A stretch of 64,000 nt of DNA from an uncultured bacterium (GCA_963845185.1 CAWJRG010000010.1:768001-832000), one strand, 5' to 3'. Positions 33,766 to 64,000 are shown, numbered from the stretch's first letter. Program-made: numbers and translations. The notes: generated by a model not told the origin, from the letters alone.

Positions 33766-34040
33766 AATGCCATACCTAGGCGGGGAACCAGCGGTGCCCT
33801 GTACCGGCAATCCGCTTCAGCCGGGCCGAGAACTTATCCGAGGGTATGTTTTTCAGACAACTTAAAATTAATTTTTGGCGTTGAAGGCCGGGTCTGATGC
33901 ACTCATCGGCTCTTGAACCCCGTCAGGTCCGGAAGGAAGCAGCGGTAAAATATGTCCGAGAGGTGTCCTCAGGCAGCCTAGCCGGAGTCAAAATTTTTTT
34001 TGAGCCTGTAAGCATAATCGACGATAAGTGGTATGGCATT
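33766..34040 (+). ncRNA. ffs: Large (Alu-domain-containing) bacterial SRP RNA
   Basis: Helix 8 GTCAGGTCCGGAAGGAAGCAGC; Alu-like 5' GGGGAACCAGCGGTGCCCTGTACC..AATCCGC; ends pair (AATGCCATAC/GTATGGCATT); upstream of dnaX. Confidence 0.93.
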
Positions 34041-36856: not shown

Positions 36857-38686
36857 GTGGGTAAAAACAACGAATTAACCGTAAAAATAATTATAGTGGT
36901 TATTTCATTTTTACTTGCTTTTATGCTTTCGCTAAGACCGCTTGATAACTCGGATTATGGATTTCACCTGCGTACAGGACAGGATATAGTAAAAAACCAT
37001 CATTTTCCCATGACTGAAAATTATTCTTATACGGCAAAAGGTAATTTTAATCCCGCATATTCGTGGATATTTGACAGCATAAGCTATGTCTTTTATGAGG
37101 CGGGGAATATTAATGGGCTTATTTATTTACAAATTCTCCTGATTTTTATAATATTTTCAATTATTTTAACTCATTTATTTAAGACAGAATTACTGCGGCA
37201 AAATTTTTTATTATCAGTGCCTGTGGCACTAAATATTATATTGGCGTTTTCGTTTTTACTTATGCCGAGAATAATGATCCGGCCGCATCTTCTGGGATAT
37301 GTTTTTCTTTCGCTTTTTATTATTGTTATGGACAGGGTTGCGCATGAGCAAAAGGACATACATGATACAAAAAATTTTTTTAAAAACAATAATTTCTGGA
37401 TTGCAATTGTTATCTTTTTGTTCTGGATTAATAGCCATTCATCATTTGTCGAAGCATTTGTGTTTCTGGGTATCTGGATAATTTCAGAAATTATCAGTAA
37501 TATACTTGGAAATAAAAAAACAGAATTTACTAAATTTTTATTTTTTGCGCTTATTTTTGGTTTTTTGAGTTTTTTTACTCCGAATTTTAATAAAATTTTT
37601 GCGACGTTTGTTTCCGCGTCAAAATCTACTGAAGAATTTTATTCACTGTTTGAAATTTTTCCGGCTTGGGGATTGTTCTATACTGTAATTATATTTCTTT
37701 ATATCATACTTTTTATTAGGATAGCAGTTTATTATTTTCGAATAAAAGATTTTTACCGTTCTTTTTCGATAATTTTTTTTACAGCACTGGGCATTTATTC
37801 GATAAGGTTTTTAGGCGAAGCTGGCATTGTGGTAGGAATTATGTCTGTTCCTGCTGCAGTAGATATGGTAAAGCATGCTGAAAAAAAGCCAGAGATAAAA
37901 AGAATTTTATTAATTTTATTAATCTCACTTACCATTGCGCAATCTGGTCTTATACTAGAATATCATAAACCGGTTAGAATGGGCATGGATGAAACAAAAC
38001 TTCCGGTTTATTCTACGGCTTACTTAAATAAACTGGATTTAGACGGCAGGATGTTTAACTATTTAGGGTGGGGCGGTTATCTCATTTGGGAACTACAAAA
38101 ATACCCTGTATTTATAGATGGCAGAATGCAGGTTTATTCAAATAATTTTCTCAATAATTGTAGTAAAATGTTGCGAAAACCACCTATTTATTTTTATGAA
38201 CAATGCGCCAAGTACGGAATCTCTTTTGCCGTGGTTCCATACGCAACAAATTTTGGTGATATGATAGTAGATGATTTTTCAGACTATCTTTTTGACAAGA
38301 ATGAATGGGCACTTGTATATTTTGACAATAATTCACTAGTTTATTTAAAGCGGGGCTTCAGCAAAAAAAATGATGCTATTATTGCCAGAGATGAATATTC
38401 AATACTGGAACCAACAATATGGCAGCCTGCTTTGTTGTATAAATATTTAAACAATGTTACAACACGTCAAAAACTTATTAAAGATCTTCATGTGTTTGAT
38501 CAATATTTGGATAACAACAGTACAACTCAAAAACTTATTAATGAGCTTCAGCGTTCTGTTTCGGAATATCCTGACTGTGTTTATTCGCATTTTTGCCTTG
38601 CATATGTAAAGTTTAAAACCGGAGATTTTACTGGCGCAACCAGGGAACTGGATATAACCAGAAAATTAACCCACAATATTAGATAG
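36857..38686 (+). CDS. Multi-pass membrane protein, putative GT-C glycosyltransferase (paralog 1)
   Basis: DYGFHLRTG loop, IRPHL, WINSHS, WGGYLIW..VFIDGR; C-terminal TPR-like helix. Confidence 0.65.
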   Translation: MGKNNELTVKIIIVVISFLLAFMLSLRPLDNSDYGFHLRTGQDIVKNHHFPMTENYSYTAKGNFNPAYSWIFDSISYVFYEAGNINGLIYLQILLIFIIFSIILTHLFKTELLRQNFLLSVPVALNIILAFSFLLMPRIMIRPHLLGYVFLSLFIIVMDRVAHEQKDIHDTKNFFKNNNFWIAIVIFLFWINSHSSFVEAFVFLGIWIISEIISNILGNKKTEFTKFLFFALIFGFLSFFTPNFNKIFATFVSASKSTEEFYSLFEIFPAWGLFYTVIIFLYIILFIRIAVYYFRIKDFYRSFSIIFFTALGIYSIRFLGEAGIVVGIMSVPAAVDMVKHAEKKPEIKRILLILLISLTIAQSGLILEYHKPVRMGMDETKLPVYSTAYLNKLDLDGRMFNYLGWGGYLIWELQKYPVFIDGRMQVYSNNFLNNCSKMLRKPPIYFYEQCAKYGISFAVVPYATNFGDMIVDDFSDYLFDKNEWALVYFDNNSLVYLKRGFSKKNDAIIARDEYSILEPTIWQPALLYKYLNNVTTRQKLIKDLHVFDQYLDNNSTTQKLINELQRSVSEYPDCVYSHFCLAYVKFKTGDFTGATRELDITRKLTHNIR

Positions 38687-38945: not shown

Positions 38946-40751
38946 TTGATTAAAAATAAGGAATTGATAATAAAAATAATGATAATTATTATTTCGTTCT
39001 TACTTGCTATATTATTTTCGTTTACGCCGGTTGACAATCCTGACTATGGCTTTCATTTAAGGACAGGACAGGATATAGTAAAAAACCATTTTTTCCCTTT
39101 AACTGAAAACTATTCCTACACGGCAAAAGGAAATTTCAACCCAGCATATTCATGGATTTTTGACAGCCTAAGTTATATTTTTTATGCATTTGGAAATATA
39201 AACGGGCTTATATATTTTCAGATAATATTGACATTTATTATATTTTTCTTAGTCCTGTTTAATTTTTTTAAAAAAGATCTTGTAAATAAGAATATATTTT
39301 TGTCCGGCCTCCTTGCTCTCAATATCTTATTTGCATTTTCGTTTTTACTTATGCCAAGGATAATGATAAGGCCGCATCTCTTTGGATATGTCTTTTTTAC
39401 AGTTTACCTACTTATTATGGATAATGCTGCCCATGACCAACAAGAAACCGGCTTTAAATTGTTACTAAAAAATAAGAATATAATCGCCGCAATTATTATA
39501 TTCCTATTCTGGGTAAACAGTCATTCGTCATTTGCTGAAGGTTATGCACTCTTAGTGATATGGATAATTTCGGTCGCATTAAGGGATTTTTCGCAAAAAG
39601 GAAAAAAATTAAATTTATTAGGCCTGATAGGGATAGCTATCATATTATTTGTCATATGTTTTTGTACCCCGAACCTGGGCAGGATATTCGCGCCGTTTGT
39701 GGGTTCTACAAAATATACTGAAGAATTCTTTTCTTTATTTGAGATCCTGCCTAAATCCGGATTTTTTTATATGTTCCTTATAATGTTTTACGTCATTATT
39801 TTTGCTGTAATAAGCCTGTATTACTTTAATAAAAAGAACTATTTCAGGTCGTTTGCTCTTGTTTTTTTTGCTGCACTTGGAGTTTATTCAGTTAGATTCC
39901 TTGGAGATGCAGGTATAGTAGCAGGAATCCTTACAGTACCGGCGGCAAAAGACTTGACAAATATCTGTGAAACAAAAAATAACTTGAAGCACGGGCTAAT
40001 AATAATCTTTGCCACGCTCGCGATAGCGCAGGGAGTGCTGATAATGCATTACCATAATCCGAATGGGATGGGCATGAATAAATCAAGTTTTCCTGTCAAT
40101 TCTGTCAAATATCTCAAACAGCAAGATATTGACGGACGCATGTTCAATTCATTTGAGTGGGGAGGATACCTTATCTGGGAGCTTCAAAAATATCCTGTAT
40201 TTGTAGATGGCAGAGTACAGGTTTATCCGGAAGAATTTATAAATAATTTCAGGATTAAGATCCTGCAAAAACCACCGCTTTATTTTTACGAACAGTGCCA
40301 AAAATACGGTATTTCCTTTGCCGTGGTGCCTTATGCATCAAACATTGGCAGAATGATAGCAAACGATTATTCTGGATATCTATTTAATAACAAAGACTGG
40401 GCGCTTGTATATTTTGACAATAATTCGCTGGTTTATATAAAGCGAGGCTTCAGTAAAAAGAATGACGCAATTATTACCAGAGATGAATATACGATGCTGC
40501 AGCCTACAATAATGGCCCCTCCTTTAATGGATAAATATTTAAACAATGATTCAAAGCGGCAAAAGCTTATTAAAGAGCTTCAGCGTTCCATTTCCGAATA
40601 TCCTGACTGCATTTATTCGCATTTTTGTTTGGCTTATATTAGATTTAAAACAGGGGATTTAACTGATGCAATAAAGGAATTGGAGACTACAAGAAAACTA
40701 TATCCAAATCCGCAAGTAGAAATACTATATCAACAATTGAAAAAGATGTAA
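38946..40751 (+). CDS. Multi-pass membrane protein, putative GT-C glycosyltransferase (paralog 2)
   Basis: Collinear with paralog 1 over the full length, long identical peptides; AAGGAG RBS before TTG. Confidence 0.65.
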   Translation: MIKNKELIIKIMIIIISFLLAILFSFTPVDNPDYGFHLRTGQDIVKNHFFPLTENYSYTAKGNFNPAYSWIFDSLSYIFYAFGNINGLIYFQIILTFIIFFLVLFNFFKKDLVNKNIFLSGLLALNILFAFSFLLMPRIMIRPHLFGYVFFTVYLLIMDNAAHDQQETGFKLLLKNKNIIAAIIIFLFWVNSHSSFAEGYALLVIWIISVALRDFSQKGKKLNLLGLIGIAIILFVICFCTPNLGRIFAPFVGSTKYTEEFFSLFEILPKSGFFYMFLIMFYVIIFAVISLYYFNKKNYFRSFALVFFAALGVYSVRFLGDAGIVAGILTVPAAKDLTNICETKNNLKHGLIIIFATLAIAQGVLIMHYHNPNGMGMNKSSFPVNSVKYLKQQDIDGRMFNSFEWGGYLIWELQKYPVFVDGRVQVYPEEFINNFRIKILQKPPLYFYEQCQKYGISFAVVPYASNIGRMIANDYSGYLFNNKDWALVYFDNNSLVYIKRGFSKKNDAIITRDEYTMLQPTIMAPPLMDKYLNNDSKRQKLIKELQRSISEYPDCIYSHFCLAYIRFKTGDLTDAIKELETTRKLYPNPQVEILYQQLKKM

Positions 40752-41908: not shown

Positions 41909-42634
41909 TTAAAAAACTTTAAATTTTTTGAATTTTTTTACAAATAACTCCCAGTGGTCCTTAAAATCCCAGTAGCGCCCGGCAAAAGTAGTTGTGCCAT
42001 TAAGTATGCTTTTTTTAAAATCTTCTGCATTTTTGCCTTTAAAAAGAGTATATGCAGTTCCAATGCCATCGAGCGAATGTGAATCTGAACCCCCTGTAAC
42101 AGGTAATTTCCAGTATTTGTTATTTATTTTTCGAGCCTTTGCATCGGTAATCTTTCCTGCTATTGCGGGATTAATCAACTCGACAGCATCAAAATATATA
42201 AATTTATTTTTGCTTTTCAACACATCCTTAAAGCTGCCTTCGCCAACGCTGGTCGTAAGCCAGCTCAAAGGATGAGGTACTATACAAATACCGCCCTGCC
42301 TATGTATTTCCTCAATTGTCCTAAAAAGGCCGGTATATCTTTTTATCCTGTTTTTCATAAATAGACCGATTAGGTGCCCTTTCAAAGTGCTTACTTCCTC
42401 GCCGACTATTATCTGAATACGGTATTTTTTTTTCAGCGCATATTCTTGCGCAGTCAGACCGCCCTTTATCTGGTCATGATCGGTGATGGCTATTACATCA
42501 AGATCGGTATAATGTTCAACATAATCGACAATTTCCTGTACCGTGCACACAGCGTCGCCTATTGATGAATGTATATGATAATCAGCTTTACCCCAGCCTT
42601 TTAGTTTATTTGGTAATATTATTTTTTTAGTCAT
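41909..42634 (-). CDS. PHP-family phosphoesterase
   Basis: DYHIHS, AITDHD, GEEVST..GH, PHP, GGSDSH. Confidence 0.9.
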   Translation of the reverse strand: MTKKIILPNKLKGWGKADYHIHSSIGDAVCTVQEIVDYVEHYTDLDVIAITDHDQIKGGLTAQEYALKKKYRIQIIVGEEVSTLKGHLIGLFMKNRIKRYTGLFRTIEEIHRQGGICIVPHPLSWLTTSVGEGSFKDVLKSKNKFIYFDAVELINPAIAGKITDAKARKINNKYWKLPVTGGSDSHSLDGIGTAYTLFKGKNAEDFKKSILNGTTTFAGRYWDFKDHWELFVKKFKKFKVF

Positions 42635-42637
42635 TAC

Positions 42638-43522
42638 TTATTGCTCCCACATGGGTCTAAACATATACCATTCTTCAGGATATTGTATAATTATTTTTTC
42701 TGCTTCTGTAAAAATTGCCTGCGTTATTGTCTGTAAATCATTTTCCCTGGAGCCAGTTAGTTTATAATCAAGTATAGCACTAGGAACCCCATAAAACCAG
42801 TCATTTTCACGCATAAGATAACCGACTATTATCTTGGCGCCTGTTTTCAAGGCAAGCCTAGCTGCGGCTGAAGCAACATAAGTCTTTTTTCCAAAAAAAT
42901 CTACCATAACCCTGCTTATATCGGTATTGGGCAGGGGCCGGTCAACGAGTACGTTTAATATACAGTTGTTTTCGAGACAGGAATAGGCATCCCTTAAGTT
43001 TTTATTAGGAAGTATCAAGTTAATGCCGTAATTTTTTCTCGATTCCTCTATAAATTTTGAATAACCGCCGCCAAGGTCATCAACGATTGCCCAAACAGGG
43101 ACTTTTTTATTAAAATAAGAGGCTATTGTTATGCCTGCAATATCCCAGTTTGAAAAATGTAATGTGGCAATAATAAGTCCTTTTTTAAAATTAAGCGCAT
43201 GTTCTATTTCAGCCACGCCTTTACCACGCATCTCAGGAATCCTGCCGGATTTTAGAATTTTATCTATATAAAGAAACTCCACGTTAAATTTGCCATAATT
43301 AGTAAAATTGTCATTCATCGTTTTATATATTTCCGCAGGGGTAGCCTGCCTGCCGAATTTTTTTTGTAAAATAACTGAATAATTATTAAATACATTTTTT
43401 CTTTTCACTCCCCATATAAAAAAAATGAATTTTGTGATCGCACCGGCAACTCCATAAAGGAATTTTATCGGAAAAATTGATATGAATTTTGAAAAAAGTT
43501 TTAAAAAGAGATACATTATCAT
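42638..43522 (-). CDS. Lipid acyltransferase, PatA/LpxL family (copy 2)
   Basis: LHFSNWD, VLVDR, VDFFG, AARLALKTGA, YPEEWYMFRPMW. Confidence 0.8.
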   Translation of the reverse strand: MIMYLFLKLFSKFISIFPIKFLYGVAGAITKFIFFIWGVKRKNVFNNYSVILQKKFGRQATPAEIYKTMNDNFTNYGKFNVEFLYIDKILKSGRIPEMRGKGVAEIEHALNFKKGLIIATLHFSNWDIAGITIASYFNKKVPVWAIVDDLGGGYSKFIEESRKNYGINLILPNKNLRDAYSCLENNCILNVLVDRPLPNTDISRVMVDFFGKKTYVASAAARLALKTGAKIIVGYLMRENDWFYGVPSAILDYKLTGSRENDLQTITQAIFTEAEKIIIQYPEEWYMFRPMWEQ

Positions 43523-44649
43523 TCAGCGCTCCATATTTTCTTATAATATTGTATGTTCATTTTTGCTATTTTCTCCCAAGTGAAATTACGCGCCTTTATA
43601 ATGCCATTCGCGCCGATTTTTTTTCTTAATGATCTGTTGCTTATAAGAATATCAAGTTTATCGTAAAGGTCAGCTACATCCCTGCTTTTTGCAAGCAAAC
43701 CGTCTTTGTTATTGGAAACAACGTCATTATAACCAGGTATATCAAAAGCTACAACTGGGATACCGGTAGCCATAGCTTCAAGAAGAACTATTCCAAAGCT
43801 TTCCCCAAAAATTGCTGGTGAGCAAAAGATATCAGCACTTGAATAATAGCGGGGTAAATCTTTTATAGAAACAAAACCTTCGAAATGAACATCCTGTAAC
43901 TTGTTCTTCCCGACGAATTTTTTATAAAGGTTAAGTAAAGGACCTCGGCCAACGATTATCAGACGTATATTTTCATATTTAGTTAAAAGCTTTTTGTAAG
44001 ATTCTAGCAAATAAATAAGACCTTTTCTTTTTTCTATCCTTCCAACAAACAATATATTTATTTTTTTATCATCATACTTTTTAATTTTTTTATTTTTTCG
44101 TTTAAAACGTTTTATACTGACTCCGTTTGGTATTATTTCAACTTCGCCATTAAAATATTTAGCAATACTCCGTTTTGCGGAAGGAGAAACAGCTATTTTG
44201 CCGTGTAAACGTTTCCATAAAGGATATAAAAAACCTCTGCTTAATTTATAAAATAGGTTAGAATTAAAATTGGCATGAAAAGTAGCAATGTTTGTAGATT
44301 TTGAATATTTGATTATTTCATGCGATAAAAAAGGCACAAAAGGCTCCTGAAAATGTATGATATCAAAATTGTAATTATCCAGTATTTTTTTTGTTCTGCT
44401 TTTACCTATAAATAATATAATCCTTCCTGTAGAGCCATTGACAAAAAAAGGAACTCCTTTTCCTATTCGTATTACATCTTCTTCATCTATGCTATGTCCG
44501 CTGAAATGGCCTGTTATAATCTTAACAAAATATCCCATTTTCTTATATTCCTTTTTTAAATGATATACATATTCCTGTACACCTCCGGGTAAAGGGTAAT
44601 AATAAGGGGTAACTATCGCGATTTTTTTGAACAATTTCTTTTTAGTCAT
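43519..44649 (-). CDS. pimA: GT4 phosphatidylinositol mannosyltransferase, PimA-like
   Basis: PY...PGGVQ, HFQEP, ATFH, GESFGIVLLEAMA; operon context. Confidence 0.75.
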   Translation of the reverse strand: MTKKKLFKKIAIVTPYYYPLPGGVQEYVYHLKKEYKKMGYFVKIITGHFSGHSIDEEDVIRIGKGVPFFVNGSTGRIILFIGKSRTKKILDNYNFDIIHFQEPFVPFLSHEIIKYSKSTNIATFHANFNSNLFYKLSRGFLYPLWKRLHGKIAVSPSAKRSIAKYFNGEVEIIPNGVSIKRFKRKNKKIKKYDDKKINILFVGRIEKRKGLIYLLESYKKLLTKYENIRLIIVGRGPLLNLYKKFVGKNKLQDVHFEGFVSIKDLPRYYSSADIFCSPAIFGESFGIVLLEAMATGIPVVAFDIPGYNDVVSNNKDGLLAKSRDVADLYDKLDILISNRSLRKKIGANGIIKARNFTWEKIAKMNIQYYKKIWSAE

Positions 44650-45502
44650 ATTTTATCCATACTTTTTGAAGCATGCACCATTGCTCCGGGTATTGGTTTA
44701 TTATCTTTTCCATTTCAATAATGATTTCTTTTGACAGTTTTTCCACATTTTCCTGTGATTTTTCCAGCATTTCAAGATTAAGAATTTTTTTAGTATTAAT
44801 AGCCGGTATAAAATAAAATGGATTTTCTTGCCTAAGCATGCCGCCAAAAATAATAGGGCTTTTATGAGCAAGGGCAAGCTTCGCAGGTCCACTCGGTATA
44901 TAAGCTTTATTGCCGAAAAAATCAAGTATCAGGCCATTTTTATCGAGATCCCTGTCTGATAGAAGTACAAGTATTTCATTATGTTTTAAAGCGTTTAGCA
45001 TCGATTTTATATCATTTGATTCTATTACTTTCATACCAAAACGCTCGCGTGTTTCCTTAAACCAGCGAAAAGCGCCGGATGATAATTTTTCAACAACAAC
45101 ATTAGTCCTGCCTGGAAAAAGGCTGGCTAAAAAAGATCCGCCCAAGTCCCAATTGCCTATATGCGTACTTATCCCAATAAGTCCATGGCCATTTTCAAGT
45201 AATCCGCTTATAAAGTTAAAAGTTGCTTTAAATATATTTTGGTCTGATATTGCATTTAAAAGAATTTCTTTTTTGCAGAAAAGGTCAAAGTAGTAACGGC
45301 CGTAGTTTTTGTAAATCTCTGCCAAAATTTTATCCGGTACATCAGTGGCGTTTAAAACAAAACAAATATTCTTTTTTAAAGTATGTTTTTTAATTTTTGA
45401 AAAGAAAAAAAGGATTAATGCGATTTTCTCAAAAATAAAATATCCCGCCTTACGCGGGATATTCTTTAAAATAAATTCTGATATTTTAAAAATAAAATAC
45501 AT
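44642..45502 (-). CDS. Lipid acyltransferase, PatA-like (copy 1)
   Basis: THIGNWDLGG, LLSDRDL, FFG..A.IPSGPAKLAL, PEQWCMLQKVW. Confidence 0.8.
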   Translation of the reverse strand: MYFIFKISEFILKNIPRKAGYFIFEKIALILFFFSKIKKHTLKKNICFVLNATDVPDKILAEIYKNYGRYYFDLFCKKEILLNAISDQNIFKATFNFISGLLENGHGLIGISTHIGNWDLGGSFLASLFPGRTNVVVEKLSSGAFRWFKETRERFGMKVIESNDIKSMLNALKHNEILVLLSDRDLDKNGLILDFFGNKAYIPSGPAKLALAHKSPIIFGGMLRQENPFYFIPAINTKKILNLEMLEKSQENVEKLSKEIIIEMEKIINQYPEQWCMLQKVWIKYD

Positions 45503-46594
45503 TTATTTTTTGTGTTTTTTTGTATTACCGTCAATAAATTCAGCAACCATTCTTTTTGCAGTCGTATCTGAATATTGTTTCGGAGGGGTCTTCATGAAAT
45601 AGGCACACGGGCCTTCAAGGATGCCACCGATTTTTCTATCCAATGCTATTTTTGCGCACCGAATAGCATCTATTATTACGCCTGCGCTGTTTGGCGAATC
45701 CCATACTTCAAGTTTAAGCTCCACATTTAAAGGAACATCGCCAAAATTTGTGCCCTCGAGCCTGATATAAGCCCATTTTCTGTCTTCCAGCCACGGGATA
45801 TGGTCGCTCGGGCCTACATGTACGTCGGTTTTTTCATTTATTTCATTCTGCAACTGGCTTAGGACAGAATTTGTTTTTGATATTTTTTTTGAATACAGCC
45901 TTTCTCTTTCAAGCATGTTCATAAAATCCATATTACCGCCAAAATTGATCTGATAGGTTCGCAATATTTTTACGCCCCTGTCGCCGAATAATTTTGTGAG
46001 AACCCTGTGAACTATAGTTGCGCCGACCTGTGATTTTATATCATCGCCTATGATAGGCACACCAGCATCCTTAAATCTCTGCGCTGATTCTTTATTAGAG
46101 GCAATAAATACAGGTATAGCATTAATAAATGCAACTTTTGACTTAAGAGCTTCTTCGGCATAATACCTTGTTGCTTTTTCAGAACCAACAGGAAGGTAAC
46201 TTATAAAAACATCTGTTTTTGTTTCTTTTAATACTGCGGCAATATCAACAGGTTTTTTTGGAGATTCAATGATAACCTGTCGATAATATTTTCCAAGGCC
46301 GTCAAATGTATGCCCGCGCAGTACTTTTACTCCAGTTTTTGGAATTTTTGCGAATTCAATGGTATTATTCGGGAAGCTTGCAAGAGCATCTTTTGTATCT
46401 TTACCAACTTTATTTATATCAACATCAAACGCGGCAACAAGCTCAATATCCTTTACCCTGTAACCGCCAAGGTTTGCATTCATAAGACCCGGAACAAATT
46501 CTTCATCTTTCACATTTTTATAGTATTCAAGACCCTGCACAAGAGAAGAAGCACAGTTGCCCGTCCCGGCAATTGCAATTCTTATTTTTCCCAT
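45503..46594 (-). CDS. ino1: myo-inositol-1-phosphate synthase
   Basis: [49 protein letters not shown]. Confidence 0.96.
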
Positions 46595-46619
46595 CTTAGT
46601 AAAACCTCCTTTTAGCGCC

Positions 46620-47222
46620 TTAATCATTATTCAAATTTTTTGTTTTAACAAAAACCCACCAAACTCTCTGAATAACTGTTATAAAAGAAAAAAATCCTAT
46701 TACTAACATTGCTTCAAAAATTCTGTTAATCAGCAAGCCAATAATAAAAATTATTAACCTTTCGGGACGCGTAAAAACTCCCACTTCGCAGTCTATTTTT
46801 AAAGCACCTGCCCTTGAACGAGTGTAACTAATCAAGAAAGATAAAAACATCACTATGTATGAAAGGATAATACCATACCGCGAATCTAAATTTACATAAT
46901 GCATTAAAACCGCAAAATATAAGATTCCCTCTGATAATCTGTCAACCGTAGAATCAAGGAAACCGCCAAACTTGGTCTTTTTATTCATTTTGCGCGCAAG
47001 TACACCGTCCAGCATATCAAAAATACTACCCAAAAGCACTATAACAGCAGCTAAAATGAAATTGCCCTTAATAATATAAAAGGCGCCGACGCAAGTTATG
47101 ATAAAACCCAACCATGTAACGGCATTTGGAGTAAAGCCTGCCTTACTCAAAAGAACAATTATAGGCGCGAGAATTTTCTCGCTAAAACCTTTTAAATTAT
47201 CACGTAATTTTTGGTAAGCCAT
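46620..47222 (-). CDS. pgsA: CDP-alcohol phosphatidyltransferase (phosphatidylinositol-phosphate synthase-like)
   Basis: [37 protein letters not shown]; adjacent to ino1. Confidence 0.88.
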
Positions 47223-47295
47223 TTTTAGGCAATAAATATCTCCTAAAACATTATAATCAAAAAGTGTTTAATTTATTAAGAAAACAACGAGGTCT

Positions 47296-47324
47296 GTTAT
47301 AACACCAATTATAATTTTTGTCAA
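47296..47324 (-). promoter_or_regulatory. sigma70 promoter for pgsA-ino1 operon
   Basis: TTGACA-17-TATAAC on minus strand. Confidence 0.65.
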
Positions 47325-47358
47325 TAAAAATTCATTAGCCCAGATTACTCCATCGTGG

Positions 47359-47520
47359 AACTCCTCGCAGATGCGATTAAGCCTTTGTATCTTCACTATT
47401 TAGGCGAGGTGGGGACCAGACACCGCAACTAATGCTGCTCTGATCATATTCCATGGCGCCGGGTATAGATTCATCCTTCTGAAAAGCAAAGGTTAAAAAC
47501 AGCTTCAACTGCGAGGGTCG
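47359..47520 (-). ncRNA. ssrS: Probable 6S RNA (rod-like structured RNA)
   Basis: GC-rich intergenic segment; nested pairings CCTCGCAG/CTGCGAGG, CCTTTG/CAAAGG, GATCAGA/TCTGGTC, GCAGC/GTTGC; central unpaired region; TACAAT upstream on minus strand; strand not certain. Confidence 0.55.
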
Positions 47521-47605
47521 GACATTGTAGATAGTTGCAATTACGCCATTAAATTGTCATGACATATATAATTTAATGAGGATAATTAATTATTTTATGA
47601 GAGGG

Positions 47606-63396: not shown

Positions 63397-64000
63397 GTGC
63401 GCCGAGAAAAGCGTATCGGTTCGCGCTGGTGAAAGTCCAGCCTGGGCAAAGGTCAGCCGCCAGCCCAATACCAAATTCCACAAATAGTGAGGCAACGAGC
63501 TAAATGAAGCTGGAAGGCGGGAGACATCGGGATACAACGCAAGTGAAGGTATTGAGCCCCGAAATCGCCAACGTGTCGGAGGCCGACATTTTTCATAAAA
63601 GAGCAGGCAGCAGTCCCACAATCATAAAAAGGCGAGAGAGTGGGAATCCGACGGGGTCTAAGTCCGTGTCAAGATGTCAAGGAGCAGATATGAACTCGGG
63701 AGAGCCGGGACACCCTCAAAACGAGAGTATGCGGCGACAAATCCTAAAAGATAAGGAGCCGCAAAAGATGTTCCGGCAGTCTGACTATCCCATAGTATCG
63801 ATGAAGTCTACGAAAGTAGATGGAGAAAGGGGATAGAGGGAATGCGTATGGACATAAGGGAGACAACCGCCACACACAGAGGTGGAGACGGAATGGCAAC
63901 AAAACTTATGACCATAACAATGCGGGCAAAGGAAAATCCAAAATTGAGATTTACATCGCTGATACACCTGCTCAATGAGGAGTTTCTAATGGAGTGCTTT
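63397..64000 (+). mobile_element. Group II intron, 5' part (continues beyond window)
   Basis: 5' GTGCG boundary; domain I/III-like motifs (GGTGAAAGTCC, GAGCCCCGAAA, GGCCGAC, ACGGGGTC, GAACTCGGGAGAGCC, GGCAGTCTGA..CATAGTA); followed by RT ORF. Confidence 0.92.
63893..64000 (+). CDS. ltrA: Intron-encoded reverse transcriptase/maturase, N-terminal part
   Basis: MATKLMTITMRAKENPKLRFTSLIHLLNEEFLMECF, typical IEP N-terminus; GAGGTGGAG RBS. Confidence 0.88.
   Translation, partial: MATKLMTITMRAKENPKLRFTSLIHLLNEEFLMECF

Follow-up and report, generated by a model that had tools for sequence, protein, structure and literature searches.

A conserved phosphatidylinositol-mannoside-like operon, with two candidate enzymes and a coding-region hairpin, predicted in an order of lipopolysaccharide-type diderm bacteria

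Described inositol lipid systems and the six-gene locus

Glycolipids of the phosphatidylinositol mannoside (PIM) type are regarded as an actinobacterial trait, whose early pathway comprises Ino1 and the products of the pgsA1-patA-pimA operon. Inositol-mannoside lipids are reportedly found in Thermomicrobia and Thermosporothrix as well; if that is right, PIM-like lipids outside the Actinobacteria would be less surprising. We analyzed a 64-kb window of DNA from an uncultured bacterium (GCA_963845185.1, CAWJRG010000010.1:768001-832000), in which a six-gene operon on the minus strand, at 41909..47222, resembles that pathway; all coordinates given here are positions in this window, by which we mean the whole stretch analyzed. 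Judging from gene content, gene order, residues, distribution and hairpin conservation, from which we infer the activities throughout, it is likely that the operon makes an acylated phosphatidylinositol (PI) monoglycoside, probably a mannoside, and that it is built in two layers with a hairpin at the seam.

With the actinobacterial operon the locus shares PgsA1-, PatA- and PimA-like enzymes that keep most of the tested residues, an acyltransferase gene immediately before that of the GT4 glycosyltransferase, and an upstream gene for phosphatidylinositol-phosphate synthase (PIPS), as in our actinobacterial control locus (L130). It differs in its lipopolysaccharide (LPS)-type diderm host, in carrying ino1 within the operon, in its PHP gene and internal hairpin, in a second acyltransferase of another subfamily, and in having no PimB' gene in the operon. 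In the portion of PMC9246714 available to us, cluster BT_1522-1526 of Bacteroides thetaiotaomicron offers a diderm precedent, making PI by way of MIPS, a phosphatidylinositol phosphate (PIP) synthase and a PIP phosphatase whose gene is in the cluster itself; that phosphatase, BT_1525, is PgpA-like, whereas the present operon encodes a PHP protein, and the Bacteroides products are PI and an inositol sphingolipid, from a cluster described there without glycosylation or acylation genes. Uncharacterized clusters of a Chloroflexota type, a label that leans on two titled proteins, have the orders ino1-AT-AT-PHP-GT4-PIPS and ino1-GT4-PIPS (AT, acyltransferase) and hold the full gene set in one locus (L053) and most of it in three (L065, L069, L070). 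They have a PHP clade and an AT2-type signature in common with our operon but differ in gene order, and the present PIPS and Ino1 fall among sequences from the phylum of the host. Finally, LpxL and LpxM share a Pfam family and a fold with both acyltransferases described here, which differ in their acceptor-site signature and coexist with a separate lpt-linked gene in the genome. We found no publication that describes the operon, or PIM genes for this lineage, in a search largely outside subscription journals, and the words "inositol" and "lipid" are absent from the main text of the Goldbacteria paper (PMC7031533).

The features of the locus, all on the minus strand, are as follows.

47296..47324, minus: candidate sigma-70 promoter, TTGACA-17-TATAAC, upstream of PIPS; a sequence pattern picked after sight
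46620..47222, minus: PIPS, predicted PgsA1-type CDP-alcohol phosphotransferase (phosphatidylinositol-phosphate synthase), 200 aa
45503..46594, minus: Ino1, predicted myo-inositol-1-phosphate synthase, with its ATG after AGGAGG; the open reading frame is open from 46627
44642..45502, minus: AT1, predicted PatA-type acyltransferase, 286 aa
45437..45465, minus: terminator-like hairpin and U-run within AT1 codons 13-22, beginning 38 nt past the ino1 stop
43519..44649, minus: GT4 glycosyltransferase, PimA-like, 376 aa
42638..43522, minus: AT2, PF03279 acyltransferase of a distinct "DRP..WY" subfamily, 294 aa
41909..42634, minus: PHP metal phosphoesterase with a C-terminal amphipathic helix, candidate PIP phosphatase, 241 aa

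A preliminary description of this DNA had proposed that the six genes form one coupled operon, and the present analysis agrees: all of the open reading frames lie where they were placed, and the junctions from PIPS to PHP measure 25, 0, -8, -4 and +3 nt (the PIPS-Ino1 gap counted to the ATG at 46594), with the AT1 ATG directly abutting the ino1 stop. The six-gene order is identical in 17 of 20 relatives, the remaining 3 being interrupted by contig ends, a conservation far above chance. Every motif that had been listed was found (SYTRSR, RPER, H..NWD, DR, PGGVQ and GESFGIVLLEAMA), except that the one given as "H.EP" reads HFQEP. The operon had also been credited with its own promoter, for which the candidate listed above is present, but a general scan for sigma-70-like sites returned 30 against 29.6 expected, which is not above chance.

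Host, enzymes and two-layer organization

The closest GT4 homologues (60-75%) carry Ca. Goldiibacteriota or Goldbacteria titles; a few are deposited as Spirochaetia, and the one of these placed in trees (L002) falls within the same clade. In the host genome (99% complete) lpxC, lpxK and bamA all score over cut-off, and lpxA, lpxD, lpxB, kdtA and a kdsD-kdsC-lpxL-lptCAB cluster are present as well (named by eye); lpxC occurs in 23 of the 24 genomes of the order. As judged from these genes, the host is an LPS-type diderm and not an actinobacterium, in keeping with the preliminary description, and its suggested check on lipid A comes out in favor of coexistence. The host is, however, less of an exception than had been supposed, as similar clusters are common outside the Actinobacteria; in a plasmid collection we found two records, both actinobacterial.

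The earlier assignments of PIP synthase, PatA and PimA are borne out by comparison with solved structures and by residue tests. PIPS has M. tuberculosis PgsA1 as its best PDB match (E 1.5e-21, against 2.8e-12 and 3.5e-7 for the DIPP synthases), scores over the PF01066 cut-off and has an invariant DxxDGxxAR..GxxxDxxxD signature in 18 of 18 sequences. Invariant in the same 18 are R94, S132, Y133, R137, R152 and R155 of the inositol-phosphate pocket, with residues as given in the accessible part of PMC6506517; pocket residue R195 is also invariant, but it is paired with R186 of our protein by position only, outside the printed part of the PgsA1 structure alignment. On the BT1523 model PIPS reaches just 105 against 350. 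Ino1 matches PF01658 above cut-off (119.7 bits).

For the GT4 protein, PimA is the leading structure match (E 7.7e-46), followed by a next structure at 3.4e-16 and by PimB' at 5e-12. PimA and PatA residue numbers were taken from the structure-match alignments of GT4, AT1 and AT2, and residue counts cover the window and 20 relatives, with L003 and L004 left out as duplicates. Of ten PimA residues named as critical in the accessible part of PMC9202250 (Y9, Q18, Y62, N63, R68, H118, R196, E199, R201 and E274), the window protein keeps nine, eight of them invariant across the 21 genomes. Other GT4 proteins of the host genome are at most 30% identical, four GT87 matches, which might extend the head group, are unlinked, and the operon holds no second GT4 gene and no PimB'; the latter absence makes a monosaccharide the probable head group. 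Two ManC-like genes that score below cut-off could supply GDP-mannose. Many of these proteins are already annotated by JGI pipelines as PI mannosyltransferases, and the next-best matches, at ~45% identity, include one titled Dehalococcoidia. PgsA1, PatA and PimA are the best solved matches. In the phylogenetic comparison suggested earlier, GT4 and the acyltransferases are not nested in actinobacterial clades. GT4 sits among non-actinobacterial homologues, adjacent to low-GC sequences, a placement that may reflect compositional attraction.

As a separate observation, PimA-related GT4 genes also occur as tandem pairs with no PIPS, Ino1 or acyltransferase gene nearby (L005:6998-9236, L006:2269-4547, L082, L094, L096, L097 and L117). 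L005 and L006 are titled Saccharimonadia, and such pairs might glycosylate inositol lipids derived from a host.

AT1 matches PatA at E 2.4e-18 and LpxM at 4e-6. The equivalents of PatA Y83, H126, W130, D131, E149 and R164 (numbered as in the available part of PMC4792965) are invariant in 21 of 21 genomes, Asp replaces E200 in all 21, and 10 of the 11 signature positions of AT1 agree with those of the actinobacterial-type group. AT2 matches PatA at E 1.8e-14 and LpxM at 1.2e-10; its model (pLDDT 94) has PatA as the first Foldseek match (E 4e-16) with LpxM near (1e-12). AT2 retains H126, R164 and the block-3 acid, has F or L for Y83, D for E149, and DRP instead of DRD. By these residues it does not match PatA, and it belongs to a different subfamily than AT1, with a signature common to P0292 (titled Ktedonobacterales) and to one acyltransferase of the two-acyltransferase loci.

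The PHP protein retains the set H20, H22, D27, H53, E80, H87, H121, D184 and H186 in every covering sequence, residues that we take to be metal ligands from what is generally known of the PHP fold. Its model (pLDDT 92) is a PHP barrel with a C-terminal amphipathic helix (224-240) and a hydrophobic HPLS(W/Y)LT segment, and its nearest fold is the uncharacterized TM0559 (22%). An orthologue is present in the same 21 genomes of the order as GT4. In a tree of 28 rows, from which seven redundant entries and two PHPs of the housekeeping type were excluded after long-branch outgroups had spoiled a first tree, the PHPs of the order and PimA-linked metagenome PHPs form one clade (bootstrap 100; 91 including L075), with the unlinked cousins of family f22 outside it. 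PHP adjoins GT4 in 10 of 80 metagenome loci of PimA-like genes, and in L075 a 661-aa open reading frame joins PHP to an acyltransferase. On balance we favor, by somewhat more than an even chance, the prediction that PHP is a PIP phosphatase. The cousin itself (L159-L168, L172), of ~236 aa with a C-terminal helix, is found in 22 of 31 f22 genomes and is split across two frames in G043; lineages that have it carry PIPS-Ino1 and no PimA.

Distribution separates the operon into two parts. At E<=1e-40, GT4 occurs in 21 of the 24 genomes of the order and in none of 75 genomes from elsewhere in the phylum, whereas Ino1 is broader (22 of 24 in the order, 29 of 31 in f22). Among 20 Ino1 regions retrieved for comparison, those of families f21 and f22 keep the PIPS>Ino1 order without the remaining genes, with no PimA- or PatA-like genes beside the pair; PIPS and Ino1 of our operon are each sister to the f21/f22 copies (FastTree support 0.97 and 0.963). 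Within the order, G081 has PIPS-Ino1 and a terminator followed, on a single contig, by a convergent gene for PEP carboxykinase, a gene that follows or faces PHP in several relatives. AT1, GT4, AT2 and PHP are missing from G081 as a block, leaving one LpxL-family gene and a PHP of the housekeeping type only. Because of these sister copies and the block absence in G081, the operon looks like an older PIPS-Ino1 core to which an AT1-GT4-AT2-PHP add-on was joined, present or absent as one block. The relatives are not independent, and these patterns represent a handful of events. Recent transfer into this genome was considered and rejected, since the operon occurs throughout the order and has a GC content that tracks its locus.

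In the f21/f22 loci (L139-L158) the PIPS-Ino1 pair lies between lptB and rpoN in an LPS-transport cluster, an arrangement in which plain inositol lipid synthesis is linked to lpt genes. There it is usually followed by a gene of the amidohydrolase family (~410 aa) and often by one resembling S1/P1 nuclease (by eye). L148 has two near-identical ino1 copies in facing orientation, one broken into two open reading frames, possibly an assembly artefact.

The seam between the two parts carries the hairpin, found in a terminator scan as a 12-pair stem and U-run at 45437-45465 (z -4.5). It is kept in 16 of 21 genomes from five families at -17.7 to -24.5 kcal/mol, whereas synonymous recodings fold at -3.8 to -8.2 kcal/mol and at most 1 in 500 matches the native hairpin in these 16. 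With the five genomes of families f7 and f8 excluded, a choice made after the hairpin had been seen, codons 14-22 show the highest synonymous conservation among 1655 operon windows (0.86 against 0.45 +/- 0.09). When all 21 genomes are counted, the top-scoring windows still overlap the U-run and the 3' arm of the stem (0.77, compared with 0.44 +/- 0.08); the codon-14 window then stands at 0.69. Of the genome's 75 strong hairpins of terminator type, just 3 fall within open reading frames. The hairpin thus has the marks of an intrinsic terminator, with a GC-rich stem, a U-run and selection as RNA, and it is likely to be a leaky stop at the seam, by which the core would be transcribed above the add-on. 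That it terminates, and that AT1 translation overrides the termination, is our interpretation of these features.

Proposed pathway and competing explanations

We propose that assembly of the lipid would take place at the cytoplasmic side of the inner membrane, in a host whose genome carries lipid A genes as well. Ino1 would convert glucose-6-phosphate to inositol-3-phosphate, PIPS would join this to CDP-diacylglycerol to give PIP, and PHP would remove the phosphate to leave PI. The PimA-like GT4 would then place one sugar, probably mannose, on O2 of the inositol; AT1 would acylate the 6-OH of that sugar in the fashion of PatA, giving acyl-glycosyl-PI; and AT2 may add another acyl chain at a different position, perhaps on the inositol. 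The hairpin in the AT1 coding sequence would act as a leaky stop, so that the add-on is read less than the core, and ribosomes restarting on the AT1 ATG would favor read-through past it. The route is not self-contained from glucose-6-phosphate, as had been claimed: CDP-diacylglycerol, the nucleotide sugar and the acyl donor come from elsewhere. Rather doubtful, in our estimation, is a fuller version in which the whole order makes a tetra-acylated mannosyl-PI through a PHP-fold PIP phosphatase and an inositol-acylating PatA paralogue, with an overprinted attenuator, overridden by translational coupling, balancing plain against decorated inositol lipid. To our knowledge, neither type of enzyme has a characterized example.

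A number of findings weigh against the proposed pathway. PIPS scores 142.8 bits on NCBIfam NF045883, below the cut-off of 170, in contrast to the actinobacterial control PIPS, which passes at 257.6 bits; Ino1 falls below the TIGR03450 cut-off (543 against 638 bits), AT1 below that of NF005919 (135 against 209), and AT2 is likewise under its NCBIfam cut-off. PatA H284, in the same numbering as above, is replaced in both acyltransferases, by Cys in AT1 (21 of 21) and by Y in AT2, and the acyltransferase trees conflict, with FastTree and a recoded tree uniting AT1 with AT2 and LG+F+G4 splitting them. The hairpin is gone in five of 21 genomes (f7 and f8) despite the retention of most of the peptide; there the region folds at -2.1 to -6.9 kcal/mol and 5 to 403 of 500 recodings are as good. 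Among the PimA residues, Y62 is never kept in the GT4s of the order, R68 is Gln in 7 of 21, and the guanine/ribose contacts D252, D253 and K256, which read S, I and L in the window, are kept in 0 of 21. PimB' likewise uses GDP-mannose. The loss of the three contacts is not decisive, because they are not among the residues listed as common to PimA and PimB' in the available part of PMC9202250.

The remaining difficulties concern PHP. The host genome also encodes PgpA, of the same family as the Bacteroides PIP phosphatase (accessible part of PMC9246714), and IMPase, so that PHP is not the sole candidate. G081 (82% complete) retains PIPS-Ino1 without this PHP, and the PHP gene lies downstream of the hairpin. 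At 17 actinobacterial-type PIPS-AT-GT4 loci no PHP was found nearby in the available DNA, many of the metagenome loci being short. Support from fusions is thin, with seven long matches whose GT4 parts are not clearly PimA-like; we discarded the PHP-GT4 fusions P0272 and P0274, in which the GT4 portion is weak or scoreless on the operon profile.

The best-surviving alternative, which we hold to be a serious possibility though short of an even chance, is that PHP has some other role, such as turning over a nucleotide by-product or the head group of the glycolipid, while PgpA or another enzyme makes PI; it overlaps the proposed pathway. PgpA, IMPase and G081 speak for it, as do the characterized fold neighbors of PHP, which are RNase AM, PsfC and a nucleotide phosphatase-type amidohydrolase. 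PimA requires PI, however, and PHP is present or absent together with the PimA block; the single pgpA of the genome adjoins pgsA; and the PHP cousin accompanies a family in which Ino1 is nearly universal, in the numbers given above for f22.

Less probable, but still a real possibility, is that the AT1 palindrome serves as a DNA operator or as an mRNA-stabilizing or processing stem rather than as a terminator. The near-invariant stem sequence would fit such a role. Pairing is nonetheless preserved where the sequence varies, through a G-U change in L041, a shifted register in L036 and extension of both arms in L046; the U-run directly follows the stem; there is no second close copy of the palindrome within the genome; and in 11 of 17 loci that have the core only, a terminator lies between genes right after ino1 (judged by eye), at the same spot. 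These points argue against such a role.

It is unlikely that GT4 uses a UDP-sugar, glucose or GlcNAc, which would make the product an acylated glucosyl- or GlcNAc-PI of an otherwise identical pathway. GalU is present in the host genome, and D253 and K256 of PimA are replaced order-wide and in many non-actinobacterial homologues. Against this, the mannose contacts E274, S275, F276 and I278 are invariant in the GT4s, and PimA is ahead of every UDP-sugar GT4 structure by ~30 orders of E-value. AT1, moreover, retains E149 and R164, which in PatA are modeled on mannose O4 and O2 (accessible part of PMC4792965).

We consider it very improbable that AT1 and AT2 are additional late lipid A acyltransferases and that the operon unites unrelated envelope functions. 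Both are PF03279 proteins, AT2 scores higher on PRK08419 than on the PatA model (94.9 against 81.4), and depositors have titled some AT2 homologues Kdo2-lipid IVA lauroyltransferase. Yet the genome has a separate LpxL-family gene adjoining kdsD/kdsC/lptCAB-like genes (names by eye); such lpt-linked genes carry a third signature, and AT1 and AT2 stand apart from them in all three trees. AT1 and AT2 are lost along with GT4 and PHP, and five genomes without the four-gene add-on have only one LpxL-family gene each.

Least credible is the reading, raised earlier as a potential refuter, in which the CDP-alcohol transferase makes soluble di-myo-inositol phosphate that GT4 glycosylates as a compatible solute: Ino1 and CDP-alcohol transferases do serve such a route elsewhere, and two genomes of the phylum (L141, L153) have Ino1 beside longer, distant transferases, but the operon has no cytidylyltransferase domain or gene, the DIPP synthase matches are much weaker than PgsA1, and two acyltransferases are coupled into the operon.

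Genomic surroundings and significance

The host had been called AT-rich, which is true of the window (34.9% GC) but not of the genome (42.3%), so the low GC is regional. The operon, at 34.8%, is in the lowest 4% among 5.3-kb genome windows, and orthologous loci in relatives range from 28 to 48%; positions 1-48000 of the window are mostly far richer in AT than the genome. Upstream of PIPS, a 383-nt gap (47223-47605) has a GC-richer middle and a long imperfect rod fold (z -1.0), with no Rfam match at gathering score and nothing similar in 23 relatives; it is possibly a remnant or an RNA of a type new to us. At 36857-38686 and 38946-40751 lie two tandem, mutually similar polytopic membrane proteins of ~600 aa with a D(Y)GFHLRTG motif, which have a weak DUF6541 match only and look GT-C-like by eye; their adjacency to the operon is not conserved. 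We excluded these two large genes, together with the DUF1844, YfcE and TolB/OmpA genes, as parts of the operon, since adjacency is lost in most relatives. The window also contains a large-type bacterial SRP RNA (33771-34035) and a group II intron domain (63432-63666).

In the available parts of two publications, no enzyme had been identified for the mycobacterial PIP phosphatase (PMC6506517, 2019) or for the mycobacterial inositol acyltransferase (PMC9490103, 2022), the latter being expected to be periplasmic and unlike PatA. The present operon offers a compact candidate for each of the two chemistries. It may not reveal the mycobacterial enzymes themselves, given the actinobacterial-type loci with no PHP nearby and the expectation stated in that part of PMC9490103. 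The hairpin would also illustrate how an added module comes to sit behind an existing operon, with the former stop signal surviving in new coding sequence. Throughout an order, PIM-type genes stand beside a lipid A pathway, and as predicted from its genes this conserved PIM-like operon of LPS-type diderms varies a pathway that is already known, adding two candidate enzymes and a conserved hairpin in its coding region.

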